From contig OX597838.1 of the NCBI GenBank assembly GCA_951406725.2, forward strand, positions 36,704,001 through 36,768,000: a DNA stretch of 64,000 nt. The letters are read 5' to 3'. The notes under the pieces are model-generated. The model was not told the DNA's origin. It ran no database searches and saw only the letters and a program-made list of their open reading frames with translations. Numbering within the stretch: the stretch's first letter is position 1; the number at the start of each line of letters is the position of its first letter. The DNA is from Octopus vulgaris (taxonomy: Eukaryota). Made by a program: the position numbers and the translations under genes. Below are positions 5,142-26,560 of this stretch, piece by piece.

Positions 5142-5193
5142 TTTGTCAGTGAGACAGGTTGCGGACTCAAAGTGACGAAAATATTTTGGCAAA
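5142..5193 (+). ncRNA. Degenerate hammerhead-like motif
   Basis: Stem I TTTGTCA/TGGCAAA, stem II GTTGC/GTGAC, GAAA, palindromic AAATATTT at stem III; the CUGANGA box is scrambled (GTGAGACAG). Confidence 0.35.
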
Positions 5194-5297
5194 TTAAATT
5201 TAAATGTCGAAGTGAATCTAACGGCTTTTGTGTGTTTCTTAAATGGCTTATAAACACCTTCCATGCTGCAATTGTTTTCGTTCCAGTACACAATCTC

Positions 5298-5478
5298 AGA
5301 TCAGGTCATTTGCTATGCAAGTACATCTCCGTAATATATATATGTGTGTGTGTGTGTGTCCTCTGGCATAGCCTCAAGCCAACTAAAGTCCTTTTGGCTT
5401 GAGGCTATGCCAGAGGACACACACACACACACATATATATATTACGGAGATGTACTTGCATAGCAAATGATCTGATCT
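5298..5478. repeat. Near-perfect inverted repeat, 85-bp arms, 11-nt spacer
   Basis: 5298-5382 is the reverse complement of 5394-5478 with about one mismatch. Confidence 0.95.
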
Positions 5479-5513
5479 TTTGGTTGATGGAAACTGAAAG
5501 GAGTCCAGTATGT

Positions 5514-5549
<36 letters not shown>

Positions 5550-6419
5550 ACGTATATAAATAGTCAAGTCGGAAATTAAATATTGCAAAAGTCAAAAGAC
5601 GTACACATGGAATGTATTAGCTTGATGTTCAGTATAAAATGGTAAAAAAAAGCAGGAGTGTAATGTTTTGAGCATGGCTCTTTGTCAATAAGAAGAGTGA
5701 GAAAAGGTCCAAAGGAGAAACAAGTCCAACAAAAGCACGTGTGTGGATCCATGAGTGTCTTTGTGTCTCTTTGTTTCTCTCCACCGCTGGACAACTGGTT
5801 TGATGTGTTTATGTCCCCATAACTTAGTGGTTCAGCTAAAGAGACTGATGGAATATGTATCAGGTTTAAGAAAAAATAGGTATTAGTTTTGATTTGTTTG
5901 ACTAAAATTCAAAGTTCTTCCCCAGCATCGCTGCCATCTAACGACTGACACAAGTAAAAGATAAATGACGCAAACTCAGGTAAAAAGACACACCTGAATA
6001 ACTGGAACCTTTGCTAGTCAGCACTGGATTCCATTCACAACACATCACCTCACATTACATGATCTTCATCATGCTAAGCCATATTATAACATCCAAAACT
6101 ACCACCAAACTTTTACCACACTGTTGCACTGCCACAACACATCATCACCATGGATGTACCACATGGCAATATCGCACCACTAACTCGTCAGTTCATCACG
6201 TGTTTACACCATTTGTTTTTTGTTGTTTTTTTTTTGTTTTTTAATGTCACTGCACTCAACAATTCTTCATAGTCTCCAGTTTGAATTAACCTCCATATTA
6301 CCATTTGTACTCAGAATTCAGCTTGCCAGCCAAAACCTTTGCAATATCATTGGAGCTGGATCTTTAATTAAAAATCTCTGTGGAGTCTCACATGTGGATA
6401 CACCTACTTATATATATGT

Positions 6420-6481
<62 letters not shown>

Positions 6482-6708
6482 GTATGTATGTATATACTTG
6501 TGTGCATATACATGCATAGGTGTGTTTGTAGGTATATATCTGTGTGTATATCTTTGTATGTTTTGTATATGTGTGTGTCCATGTGTGTGTATGTATATAT
6601 ATCTATATATATATATATATAAATTCATAAATGAGGGTGAAAAATTAGATACCAGAATAAGGAGCTATTTCTAGCACTAGAGTTAGCCACTTATCATTAA
6701 CTCTCTTA

Positions 6709-6755
<47 letters not shown>

Positions 6756-7501
6756 GTATGTATATGTGAATATATTTTTGTATATGTGGATATATATGTG
6801 TGTATACATATATATAGACAACCCACTTTCATTTGAGGTAACTTGTTGTTCTTTGAGTTCTTTTGTCTTTCCCAATATCCTTTCATCACTGCCACCATCA
6901 TCACTATTATTTTGTTAATATTTATTATTGAAATCATTATTATTTTTAGGATTATTTTCATTAAAATTTATGATACTTCTCTAGTTGAAGTTATTGGTTT
7001 TCTTCAAATTTTTTTTTACTTAGTTTCTGTCAATAATTGATTATTATTATTCTAAGAATTATGTCAATATAGATTATTTATCAATACTGTTATTATTATT
7101 GCATTCATTATTATCATCATCATCATCATTATTATATTATATTTATCGTCGTCATCATCAATATCATCATTATTATGATTATTATTATTTTTGTTATTAT
7201 TATTAGTTTCAGGCACTTGTTAATTATTTCTTTGGCACTTGGAAAAAAGAAATCTGTATTGCTCAGTATATCAAGTTGTGTGTGTGTGTATGTATTTATG
7301 TATTTATGTATATGTTTGTGCATGTGTGTGAGGGCTTGTGTGTATATACACATATAGATAGATAGATAGATAGAAATATAATAAGAAGCTTCCAAATAGG
7401 AAAGCCTTGTGCTAGAAAGAGTAGTAGAAAACTCAAACCACCAAATAAGGATAAATTCTTGAAAGGAATGAAAATCAAAAACATTTACCATATCAATTAT
7501 T

Positions 7502-21085: not shown

Positions 21086-21537
21086 TCTTTCTTTCTTTCA
21101 TTCATTCTTTCTTTCTTTCTTTGTATTTCGTCCCTTCTGTGTTCAGCTCTGTGTGGCCAATAAAGAAGCATTATCCATCCATCCATCCATCCATCTCTGC
21201 ATCCATCCACTTGTCTATTAATCTATCTATCTATCTACTTTGAATGTCTCTGTATCTATCTTTTTACTTGTATGTGTATGTGTGTGTAGCTTAGTGGTTA
21301 GGGTGTTGGACTCATGGTCATAAAATTATGATTTCAATTCCTGGACCAGGCAATGCATTGGGCCCTTGAGCAAAACTCTTCATTTTACATTGCTGCAGTC
21401 CACTGATCTAGTAAAAGTGAGTAACCCTACAATGGACTGGCATTCCATCCAGGAGGGGAAATGTGCACCACAAAAACCAGGAAAATGGCCCCATGATTCT
21501 AAAAGTCTCTGGAAGACTCTATATTTTTTATATCCTA

Positions 21538-22417: not shown

Positions 22418-23130
22418 TTCTTCCTTTCGGGGTTGATAAATTAAGCACCAGTTGCATACTGGGGTTGATCTAATCGACTAGCCCCCTTCCCAAAAATTTT
22501 GGGCCTTGTGCCTAGAATAGAAAAGATTCTATTTATTTTTATTAATCATTTGTTTGTTATTCAATGCTGTGTTTTTGTTGCTTCGGGGTTTTGCCAGTCT
22601 TTGCTAATTGTCCAGTTTCTATGGTGATCTGTCCTTTGGTAGTTTCGCTCATTACATTTTCTTTGATTACAGAATCCAAGACTGGGAAATGCTTCCTCTC
22701 ATTCCAGCTGAATGCTATTCATTTGGATTGTATATAACTGTGGAATTCAAAAAAGGGTTGCTAAAGGCACAGCAGTCACTAGCAAAATTGTTTCATAATT
22801 AAAGTCAGGATCTGGGGAGAATCAGAACTGCTATTTTAAACAATGGTTTTTCCTCATGCTAAGCATTCCGTCCATGACAATCCTACATTTTCATATATAA
22901 TCTATTACGCTGGAAATATAACTTTACTTTGTTTTTGTTTTCATTCTTAAAGACAGTAGGTACATAATAATGAGGACATTTGGCTGTTATTTCTATTTCT
23001 GTTACCTCTTTGACTCATTTGATAGATAAATATGTGGATATCTATGAATCTATGTCTATACCTGTATACTTATAAATATGCATGTATACACACATACATA
23101 TATACATATTCATACTTTTATATATATATT

Positions 23131-25120
23131 GTGACTACATAACTAATTTCCCGTTTGAATTCATCAAGAAACAAAAACACAGCCCTAACTTCAACAAAAG
23201 AGAATGGAACGACCTCATCAAACTAAGAGAAGACAAAACAATAACAATTAAGGAGGCAGATAAGGGCAACGCGATAGTAATAATGAATACAAACAATTAT
23301 AAAAATTTAGTGCTATCCCTATTAAGAGATGAAACGTATTATGAAAGGGCCCAACAGTATAACCAGCAAAAAATAATGCATAACCTTAGGACATTAATCA
23401 ACACATACCAAGAAGGACTCACGAACAAGGAGTATGAATACATCACTAACTTCAAATGCAAATCGAGTTTGTTCTATGGTATCCCTAAGGTACACAAAAG
23501 CCAAACCATTAGAGAAACGTGCAAAACATCCACCGACACACTCATCAAAATCCCTTCACCAAATGATCTTAAACTAAGACCGATAATAGCAGGGCCAGCA
23601 TGTGAAACTCACCGCCTCAGCAATTTCTTAGACACACTTCTTAAACCTTTCCTAAAACACATCAAAAGCTACGTAAGAGACGATATAGATATGCTCAACC
23701 ACCTCCCTAAAACAGTCAATGAGAAAACCCTTCTAGTATCATTCGACGTAGTTAATCTTTATTCTAACATCCCTCACAACCTAGGAATAGAAGCAATCAC
23801 CTTCTGGCTGAATAACTACCCCTTTGAACTCCCAACTCGCATAAACAAAGACCTTATAATAGAAGGACTTAGATTCATTTTAGAGAACAATTATTTTATT
23901 TTTTTTCGGGAACAGCGATGGGCACGCGTACTGCACCATCTTTTGTCAACCTAGTGATGGGATACCTCGAGAAAATACTATACCGGATGACACTCGAGAA
24001 ATATGGAAACACCTTCGCCACCTATATCCATAACAACTGGAAAAGATACCTCGATGACTGTTTCATCATCTGGGACAAAGGCATAGAGAAACTTGAGGAA
24101 TTTAAAATTCTATTAAATGGAATAAATGACAATATACAATTCACGATGGACCACAACGAAAAAGAATTACCATTTTTAGACATCCTCATTAAGAAAACCG
24201 GCAACAAAATAGAGACAGATATCTACTATAAACCGACAGACTCTAAACAGTACCTACCCTTTGATTCATGCCACCCACGACACACTAGAATGAATGTCCC
24301 TTTTTGTTTAGCTAGAAGGATTTGCACCATAATATCAGACACAAACACCCGACACACACGTCTCCAGGAACTTAGAACCACACTCACAAATAGAAACTAT
24401 CCACAGCCCCTAATAGACAGTGCAATCCAACGGGTACTTAAATTAAGTATAGAAGACCTGAGACAAACAAAACCAAAAAAGAAAGAACAATTAAAAACCC
24501 TTCCCTACATCTCTACACACAACCCACTCAACAATGAGGCCTTCAACACCATACTACAAAGCACAGCCCTACTAAAGGGAGACCCAAAGATGAACCGGAT
24601 CCTAGAAACACACACCATCATTAAAAGTAAACGGCAACCAAAATCCTTGAAAAGGATTTTAACCCAAGCTACACTGCACTCAACATCAACCACAAAACCA
24701 GCAGTTAGAAAATGTGGAAGGCCCAACTGCGGAATCTGTGTCATCTTGAAAGAAGGATCAGAATTTATACTGGAACAAGGCCACCAGTTCACCATTAGAA
24801 CAAACTTCACCTGCGCATCAGAAAACTTAATTTACGTCATAACATGCGCAGGCTGCAATAGGCAGTATATAGGCCATACAAAAAATAGCTTACGTAACAG
24901 GATGGCGGTGCATAAATCACAAATTAGAAACCCTGATTACCGCAAAATACCGGTCAGCGGACACATAGATAGATGTGCTGGAAATGTAAATCCGAAATTT
25001 ACAACTAACCCGCTCTATAAATTCAGTGACAACGCAACCTTCACACAACGCCAAAATAAAGAACTATATTTCATAAAAAAATTTAGACCAAGTTTAAACA
25101 CCCTGGGCCAGGAATACTAA
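23131..25120 (+). pseudogene. Penelope-like retroelement ORF (reverse transcriptase + GIY-YIG endonuclease, Neptune-like), 5'-truncated with one deletion/frameshift near 23900
   Basis: Motifs IKEADKG, FYGIPKVHK, LRPIIA, SFDVVNLYSNIP, GTAMG..TAP, RYLDDCF, LPFLDI; linker CGRPNCGIC; endonuclease NLIYVITCAGC..YIGHT...R...H. Two overlapping ORFs join at the T-run ~23895-23906. Confidence 0.95.
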
Positions 25121-25285
25121 AACAAAAGATAAGTCCTCCGAAAAGGAGAACCAAATTTCACCACGGCCGCTACTTCAAACAGACACTCACTCTGACGGAA
25201 ATATGCCTTAGTAAAAAAGGAAAAAAATTATTTCGTGCAAATCTGACCCTGATACATACGATACAGCTAAGGGTCAGACCCGATT

Positions 25286-25685
25286 CTGATTGGTCAACAA
25301 GTTGATGACGTCTAGCTCTGCTAGAATGGACAGGATACAAACAGGGGACAGTCATTAGTCAGAATATTGATGACGTCCTTTTCTGCTTGAATAGTCACCT
25401 AACAAGTACAGACAGGGGGCAGATCTAATGTAGCTATAAGTCGTGATTGGGCAGAATCTGGATGACGTCCCGCTATGCTTGACTAACGAAGTGACTGGTC
25501 AAGACAGGAAACAAACAAGAGGGAGTTATAATGCAGCGATTGGTCAAAATAATGATGACGTCCCGTTCCACTTGATTAAAGCCACCTAACGAAACGATTG
25601 GTCAAAACATTGATGACGTCACGCTACGCTAGATTGACCACCTAACAGGCATTATAAAACCGAGCATTTCACAAAAACTCACTAG
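25286..25685 (+). promoter_or_regulatory. Pol II promoter of the pseudo-LTR: 5x (ATTGG-N10-GATGACGTC), TATA box, Inr
   Basis: Modules near 25289, 25354 (ATTAG), 25446, 25539 and 25597; perfect CRE TGACGTCA at 25614-21; TATAAAA at 25653-59; TCACT Inr-like with A at 25681, 28 nt after the TATA start. Confidence 0.75.
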
Positions 25686-26002
25686 AACCACCCAGCGAAC
25701 TTCCACCATGGGTCATCACAATTGCTTAAGGTAAAAATGAATTCCTCGCTCTTTCGGAAACATCAATCTTCTGTATTGACCGCTTTCCACCACTTTGATC
25801 TGTTTTTTGTATTGAATACGTATCGCCACCGTGGGCCACTGCATCGAACACTTTGAACATATACTTCAAACTATATATCAACTATACATGAACTATATAT
25901 CAACTATACATGAACTCTAAGATGTCTGACTCCGTTGTGTATTATAAATGAATTTCTTGTGTTTGACGGCATGAGCTGTCTCTTTTTATATATAACTTTT
26001 TT

Positions 26003-26036
26003 TTGATAAGGTTCATTTCAGGAACTGAAACATGTT
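26003..26036 (+). ncRNA. Hammerhead-like motif with U3-A8 core in the PLE pseudo-LTR
   Basis: TTGATAA-GGTTC(ATTTCAG)GAACT-GAAAC-AT-GTT; palindromic AACATGTT; stem I weak. Confidence 0.55.
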
Positions 26037-26167
26037 ATAATGTATATATAAAAATTAAAAATTGTATAATACAGCAGCATTTTCGAACTTCATTTTTTAC
26101 AAATATATATATATATATATATAAATATATATATATTTGTAAAGTCATAAATGAGGGAGAAATAATT

Positions 26168-26560
26168 TGTGGTAAGTAGCTTACTTACCAACCACATGGT
26201 TCTGGGTTCAGTCCCACTGCGTGGCACCTTGGGCAAGTGTCTTCTACTATAGCCTCGGGCCAACCAAAGCCTTGTGAGTGGATTTGGTAGACAGAAACTG
26301 AAAGAAGCCTGTCGTATATATGTATATATATATATATATATGCATGTGTGTGTATATGTTTGTGTGTTTGTTCCCCTCCAACATTGCTTGACAACCGATG
26401 CTGGTGTGTTTACGTCTCCGTCACTTAGCAGTTCGGCAAAAGAGACCTATAGAACAAATACTAGGCTTACAAAGGATAAGTCCTGGGATCGATTTGCTCA
26501 AGTAAAGGTGGTGCTCCAGCATGGCCGCAGTCAAAATGACTGAAACAAGTAAAAGAAAAA
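26168..26560 (+). mobile_element. SINE family A, slightly 5'-truncated
   Basis: Family consensus from TGTGGTAAGTAGC to the tail. Confidence 0.9.

Follow-up and report, generated by a model that had tools for sequence, protein, structure and literature searches.

The stretch of Octopus vulgaris DNA analysed here, referred to as the window, is 64,000 nt long and carries a 5'-truncated copy of a young EN+ Penelope-like retroelement (Table 1). The copy is 98.9% identical over 3006 nt to the intact copy L033, and the youth of the family is evident from scored matches that are 99–100% identical in 40 of 40 cases, among 989 candidates; the 3' ends of copies fall at 26105-26109. Within the ORF2 remnant, Pfam places the GIY-YIG domain (PF01541) at about 24827-25090, and the stop codon at 25120 precedes the array of modules described below. 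For P0004, RVT_1 (E 1.2e-6, 28.9 bits) lies just below the cut-off of 29.6 and GIY-YIG (E 2.9e-6) above cut-off, with 776 relatives at E<=1e-30. Intact copies at full length have a 479-codon ORF1 overlapping a 781-codon ORF2 (L033:3788-5227 and 5146-7491, an overlap of ~80 nt in different frames), and full-length tandem copies have, immediately before ORF1, a 3' portion of the same pseudo-LTR that varies between copies. ORF1 itself is coiled-coil-like with Pro/His/Asn-rich repeats and no Pfam family above cut-off; an ORF1-like frame is also seen 3' of the pseudo-LTR in the relatives L081, L084 and L085. SINE-like repeats flank the element (window 26160-26560 and 21270-21500) in an otherwise microsatellite-rich window, and Pfam gave no family for the 85 window ORFs scanned out of 136 complex ones, so no host gene was identified.

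An RT followed by a C-terminal GIY-YIG domain is the arrangement of EN+ Penelope-like elements, and the direct upstream pseudo-LTRs, inverted 5' pieces and 30–40 bp tail (in L275 and L279, and as a loose contig end at L053:1538) agree with it. The first-pass annotation had taken the host to be a Penelope pseudo-LTR, which is borne out; a source on the pseudo-LTR mechanism is PMC11167929. Neptune/Nematis-type elements are described as having a CX2-5CxxC linker before GIY-YIG and (TA)n targets (PMC8557442), and here the linker is present as CGRPNCGIC in P0004 and (TA)n junctions are seen; the element would thus fit that type by these described features alone. The likeness to such elements (PMC8557442, PMC4209133) takes in RT with C-terminal GIY-YIG, linker, (TA)n targets, partial tandems, inversions, a short tail and a minimal hammerhead of the U3-A8 kind, here predicted, whereas the copies described here differ in their separate ORF1. 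The predicted hammerhead consists of UUGAUAA (26003-26009), GAAA (26027-26030) and a palindromic ACAUGU, with a predicted cut after 26036; stems I and II are present in a computed fold (z -1.85), the core as read by eye is kept across subfamilies, and an Rfam search returned no hammerhead match.

Table 1. Features of the element and its pseudo-LTR in window coordinates.
Feature	Position	Strand	Basis
5'-truncated young EN+ Penelope-like retroelement copy, ending in (TA)n target	23127..26109	+	comparison with intact copy L033
ORF2 remnant (RT + GIY-YIG), no start, frameshifting deletion 23904-23906	23127..25120	+	ORF reading, comparison with L033
3' UTR / pseudo-LTR	25121..26109	+	copy comparison
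Region traced to an inverted pseudo-LTR fragment of another Penelope family, later duplicated and diverged	25175..25650	+	chain of intermediates
Module 1, ATTGG-N10-GATGACGT(CT)	25289..25311	+	pattern match
Module 2, ATTAG variant	25354..25376	+	pattern match
Module 3	25446..25468	+	pattern match
Broken partial sixth module (ACTGG; GACTGGTCAA), no CRE, inside unit 3	25493..25502	+	sequence
Module 4	25539..25561	+	pattern match
Module 5, palindromic CRE TGACGTCA at 25614-25621	25597..25621	+	sequence and pattern match
TATAAAA box	25653..25659	+	sequence
Predicted initiator TCACT, A at 25681	25679..25683	+	sequence
Upstream ATG in CCACCATGG context	25708..25710	+	sequence
Splice donor AAG/GTAAAA	25731..25736	+	sequence; used by one transcript contig
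Predicted minimal type I hammerhead, U3-A8 core variant	25983..26056	+	read by eye against PMC4209133

A pattern search for ATTRG-N10-GATGACGT gave five matches in the window, at the module starts of Table 1, and none in 100 shuffled windows. All that the first-pass annotation had reported of the array was found again: five modules with a fixed gap, one of them ATTAG, the last with a perfect CRE, then TATAAAA and a predicted initiator, here TCACT, whose A is 28 nt downstream of the TATA box's first T. Counted from ATTGG to TGACGT, the gap is 12 nt (N12) in five of five modules. The ATTAG of module 2 is common to the older copies L361 and L362, and the full palindromic CRE occurs at one site of the five, 31 nt upstream of the TATA box. 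Five modules were present in 22 of 30 fetched young copies, four in 7 and three in 1. The TATA box keeps a constant distance of 33 nt from the last TGACGT in young subfamilies; TCACT has no conservation in the sister subfamily. The ATG at 25708 is recent and has no counterpart in older subfamilies, and the splice donor is found in most insert-bearing subfamilies. A short inverted repeat (TCTGACCCT ... AGGGTCAGA, window 25224-25278) lies just 5' of module 1, and a 22-bp tandem duplication at 25869-25916 is polymorphic between copies.

The annotation had argued that a fixed spacing between diverged spacers and linkers implies selection. The N10 spacers do differ, being 4–8/10 identical pairwise, but they are not independent, as spacers and linkers align with each other and with the monomers of a sister subfamily (~96% identical in ORF2), which has 3–6 nearly identical monomers of 93 and 56 bp. 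Across sister subfamilies the number of monomers per copy ranges from 3 to 7, copy L298 having seven, and module 4 is duplicated in the young copies L056 and L065. With an indel-to-substitution ratio of 0.14 from related pseudo-LTRs (298 pairs), the probability of no spacer indel among the five window modules is about 0.25. Because the modules share recent ancestry by tandem duplication, the argument from spacing in the window is insufficient, and the five copies alone do not show selection; the claim of constraint is carried instead by the donor clade and by stepwise gains of CCAAT and TATA, both described below. Tandem expansion is also seen in L255 (G000:C30:14022435-14022763), in which a 36-bp stretch 3' of the splice donor has grown to about nine copies.

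A genome-wide pattern search found the same 12-nt gap with quite different spacers, and of 20 such places fetched, 10 belong to another Penelope clade (42–50% ORF2 identity where ORF2 is present). Its modules have the form CRE-N12-CCAAT when read along the sense strand and lie immediately 3' of the stop codon. A chain of intermediates runs from the donor (L290/L315) through L371/L369, L360, L365 and L252 to the window, and the array monomer descends from an inverted fragment of that other family's pseudo-LTR. The captured piece is 324 bp on the reverse strand (L371 vs L315, 86% identity). Early insert-bearing copies match 26–30 of 60 donor loci in four of four cases, three of three insert-less copies match none of the 60, and neither the window nor the ~96% subfamily matches any of them directly. 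On either side of the insert stands a directly repeated 60-bp stretch that belongs to the recipient itself, and the 3' end of the donor is missing from the insert; together these traits suggest a template switch rather than insertion. As ATTCG is the donor state (CGAAT in L290, L291, L287 and L282), the CCAAT boxes of the window are derived.

The order of changes was read from a tree of the last 330 nt of ORF2, with the pseudo-LTR unused and the root on the two most distant copies; 59 of 97 loci passed the filters, the others having no ORF end or too little downstream sequence, and several internal nodes are weak (0.66–0.88). The tree is a ladder with 18 basal tips that have no insert and 41 insert-bearing tips (support 0.94). 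Copies with one ATTCG and one ATTGG module and TACAAC 95 nt downstream are followed by copies with two ATTCG modules and TATAAC, then by three modules with TATAAA at 49 and later 34 nt, then by L365, which mixes ATTCG and ATTGG monomers, and then by 3–7 ATTGG monomers, in which the distance from the last TGACGT to TATAAA is constant at 33 nt. In the youngest copies, including the window, the donor-direction TATA (TTTATAAA) is lost. The order is therefore no insert, capture, duplication, TATA steps, ATTCG to ATTGG, and loss of the donor-direction TATA; TATAAAA arose within the lineage (TACAAC, TATAAC, TATAAA), the CRE-TATA gap shrank from 95 to 33 nt and was then fixed, and TGACGTTT became TGACGTC. 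Most insert-bearing copies have the splice donor, whereas TCACT, like the ATG at 25708, is a recent gain.

Spacing could be examined independently of the motif in the donor clade, for which 50 loci were chosen by ORF-end similarity (60 fetched, minus 3 seeds and 7 duplicates). Every ACGTCA-CCAAT pair within 25 nt is N12 (24/24, across 19 loci and 14 distinct spacers), and no CRE-CCAAT pair in the opposite orientation was found within 25 nt in these loci. For donor and recipient together the gap is N12 in 149 of 154 pairs, N11 in one and N18 in four; a further N11 occurs in L371, and both N11 variants sit in decayed copies. The major spacer classes share 3–9 of 12 letters, and a minimum tree of 16 recurrent spacers requires 43 substitutions, for which ~6 indels are expected, giving a P of about 0.002 that is rough, as it assumes one spacer tree and the indel rate of the flanks. 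Spacing in the donor clade thus supports constraint on the CRE-CCAAT gap.

In human cells, NF-Y data place AP-1/TRE and E-box sites 10–12 bp 5' of CCAAT, the AP-1 case being described at LTRs, with distances measured somewhat differently between papers (PMC3730095, PMC7793273, PMC4889920, PMC12065363). The orientation-specific geometry of such composites, a bZIP site 10–12 bp 5' of CCAAT, is found in five of five window modules and 24 of 24 donor pairs. The modules resemble these stereo-positioned human LTR modules in having a bZIP-type site 12 nt 5' of CCAAT, repeated in the terminal repeat of a retroelement; they differ in that the site is a CRE (TGACGT) rather than a TRE or E-box, the element is non-retroviral and from an invertebrate, and binding is predicted. 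It is suggested that the NF-Y/bZIP spacing rule of human cells holds in an invertebrate. The genome-wide pattern returned 1322 matches against 555 in the control, with N12 in 84 of the first 100 listed (hand count), but this excess was rejected as proof of a host-wide N12 grammar, since the matches come mostly from the window lineage and the donor clade and are not independent evidence; 12 matches form one family, read as the YADDV codon run of a LINE reverse transcriptase (3 of the 12 fetched, by eye). In an unrelated locus (L293:1500-1600) ATTGG-N13-TGACGT is repeated in tandem, as three units of 29 bp, ahead of a TATA-like word; this is possibly the promoter of the host or of another element with a 13-nt gap.

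Transcript evidence consists of contigs from eight runs, which carry no tissue, strand or level and whose RNA status was guessed. In run X8 (probable RNA), and in this run of the eight only, a contig leaves the element exactly at the splice donor (L053:1126, which is 25730 in the window) and continues into a sequence with a single genome match. That match begins right after a pyrimidine tract and AG acceptor, and a solo fragment with modules 4-5, TATA box and exon 1 (window 25511-26105) has its splice donor 594 nt upstream. Depth arithmetic leaves at most ~28 nt of this contig upstream of L053:1108, so that it would begin at or just after the predicted start, a limit that a variant bubble or chimeric end could equally explain. 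A second loose end in X8 maps to another chromosome, and an internal 35-nt exon was rejected on that account, no family copy lying within the ~52 kb around it. Copy L024, 22 kb away, was superseded as donor source by the solo fragment, though it may be an alternative source of the splice donor.

In the solo fragment L375:686-1593 (G000:C15:30697268-30698175) the donor is spliced to a flanking 93-nt exon with an ATG and a short hydrophobic, signal-peptide-like run; it is possibly the element-driven first exon of a host gene, and a search for a next exon found none. No donor-to-ORF1 splice joint was seen among the contigs of the eight runs, contigs showing presence rather than absence. Read by eye, a splice from exon 1 (window 25708-25730) to the CAG acceptors after the hammerhead (L053:1470-1525) would give the ATG a short reading frame, which is the frame of ORF1 and would stop at a TAA shortly before it. 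Contigs looked 1.5–2.8 times deeper past the predicted start in four of four runs of a first set and flat in X9, X5 and the unlabelled X15; the step was discarded as start evidence, since parts of the element cannot be ranked by the depth of contigs and its 3' parts are present in more copies. A clear direct pseudo-LTR precedes 18 of the ORF1-bearing copies, and in 7 of them it begins at 25575-25655, just keeping the last module or TATA (scan-corrected P 0.011, uniform null). This cluster would fit retention of the last module and TATA box, and it may also come from TA microhomology or pausing of RT.

Read together, these data make it probable that the array in the pseudo-LTR of this young element, taken from a captured inverted fragment, serves as an upstream promoter for RNA polymerase II in the manner of an LTR; on each module NF-Y is predicted to sit side by side with a bZIP protein of the CREB/ATF type. 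The annotation's proposal of a CCAAT/CRE and TATA promoter with constrained spacing is therefore probably right, though for a reason other than the one it gave. Capture would have taken place by template switch during reverse transcription, and selection for promoter strength may lie behind the duplication and the changes ATTCG to ATTGG and TACAAC to TATAAA, with the direction of the promoter reversed relative to the donor. Each monomer would hold NF-Y at a fixed distance from a dimer of the CREB/ATF type, and the array would activate transcription that the TATA box directs to start near 25681. Where copies stand in tandem, ORF1-ORF2 would be transcribed from the upstream pseudo-LTR, and the truncated window copy and solo fragments would fire only into host DNA.

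It is unlikely that the array is a neutral passenger, functional in the donor only and since duplicated by slippage or template switching, with transcription supplied by a downstream internal promoter or host read-through. Such a passenger would account for the near-identical 93/56-bp monomers at 3 to 7 per copy and for the lack of significance of spacing in the window alone, and it agrees with the activity of insert-less ancestors, with several full-length copies that have no array upstream and with the TATA-less internal promoter used by D. virilis Penelope (PMC2377424). It does not readily explain why independent changes (ATTCG to ATTGG, TGACGTTT to TGACGTC, TACAAC to TATAAA, and a gap fixed on going from 95 to 33 nt) all run toward consensus at the right distances, nor the spliced contig from a two-module solo fragment. 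The least probable reading is that what first preserved the insert was promoter activity directed back into ORF2, antisense or bidirectional, giving a self-limiting RNA, with sense activity secondary: the captured piece does carry the donor-direction TTTATAAA, retained in most intermediate copies, but the youngest subfamilies, including the window, have lost it and kept the sense TATA.

Within the promoter reading, and not exclusive of it, the array could be, in a strong form of the annotation's proposal, a cAMP/CREB-CRTC, activity- or stress-inducible promoter that matters for neuronal transposition, which is doubtful. A proximal full CRE with a TATA box is indeed found (25614-25621 and 25653), the palindrome lying 31 nt upstream of TATA, and depolarisation and cAMP preferentially induce promoters with a proximal CRE and a TATA box in mouse neurons (PMC5740062). 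Against this, the full CRE is present at one site in five, an element is under selection through the germline, and mammalian LTRs rich in NF-Y sites are described as germline-active (PMC12065363). The GATGACGT flank, moreover, fits ATF2/7, CREB3 and XBP1 as well as CREB. The ERSE (ATF6/NF-Y) consensus is CCAAT-N9-CCACG, and an ERSE reading was rejected, as the bZIP site here lies 5' of CCAAT at N12 and no CCACG is present at N9. Broad or germline activity is the default expectation, and induction by cAMP, stress or neural activity is no more plausible than use in the germline or constitutive use. The furthest-reaching version is that a Penelope lineage stole a rival's NF-Y/CRE promoter by template switch, then flipped it and, in steps that the genome still preserves, tuned it into a CRE/TATA promoter that answers to signals. 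Young copies and solo fragments in their hundreds would now scatter such inducible promoters, from which spliced host transcripts would start, in neurons too; this is an improbable extension, and would have to be taken as speculative.

Among nine related elements from other hosts (metagenome and genome contigs, 40–46% identity), six have 2–5 CRE sites within 300 nt past the stop codon (shuffle P 0.016 or less) and the other three have none, with 22 CRE sites in 2.6 kb behind the stop against 5 in 18.4 kb of ORF; the CRE-CCAAT pair was found in none of the nine. CRE clusters are therefore widespread in these pseudo-LTRs and CCAAT pairing is not. In L081, L082, L084, L086, L161 and L162 the TGACGT/ACGTCA clusters lie between the stop codon and a canonical hammerhead core, and two of the CRE-cluster relatives come from contigs that are labelled as bacterial genomes but probably represent DNA of an animal host. 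No modules are present in two further Penelope families of the same genome (62% and 53–55% identity over the C-terminal 140 aa; L209-L245). A second young family (L209-L233, L238-L245) has many intact ORFs and a 3' UTR of >1 kb that is (TG)/(TA) microsatellite-like, without CRE/CCAAT modules. As insert-less subfamilies and at least two other Penelope families amplified without modules, transposition in general does not depend on the array. PMC13282606, the available text of which never mentions a promoter, lists Penelope families that were recently active in an octopus.

Repeated replacement of the 5' UTR promoter is known from mammalian L1 (PMC5381506), and the mouse L1Md monomer promoters (PMC6454616; PMC5381506) provide the closest parallel in working, though the host here is not L1: a single master lineage acquires a non-homologous promoter and multiplies it into tandem monomers, which vary in number and persist through 5' truncation. 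Both traits, an acquired non-homologous promoter and variable tandem monomers, are found here. The present case differs in that the element is Penelope-like, the array precedes a TATA box within the 3' UTR/pseudo-LTR, the donor has been traced to another Penelope family, in inverted orientation, and intermediate stages survive in the genome. D. virilis Penelope (PMC2377424) and Chlamys-3_cRei (PMC8557442) are alike in having a promoter in a pseudo-LTR formed by partial tandems, a splice donor about 46–50 nt after the start (about 46 nt in D. virilis; here the predicted start) and, in principle, the ability to drive downstream host sequence. The D. virilis promoter, however, is described as internal and TATA-less (Inr + DPE), whereas the one proposed here is upstream, contains a TATA box and has repeated activator modules; an additional internal promoter alongside the TATA promoter is possible.

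Within the literature searched, which did not include subscription journals or Repbase, only one animal Penelope promoter has been experimentally dissected (PMC2377424), and nothing was found that describes a Penelope element with such an array or capture; repeat libraries in the supplements of PMC13282606 and PMC8557442 may already contain the families described here. The array is a real feature and likely a promoter, with a traceable and unusual history. As donor, breakpoints and natural intermediates are all present in one genome, the gain of TATA, the repair of CCAAT, monomer number and the reversal of direction can each be tested with natural sequences, and the array provides a concrete candidate promoter for transposon expression in the brain versus the germline.
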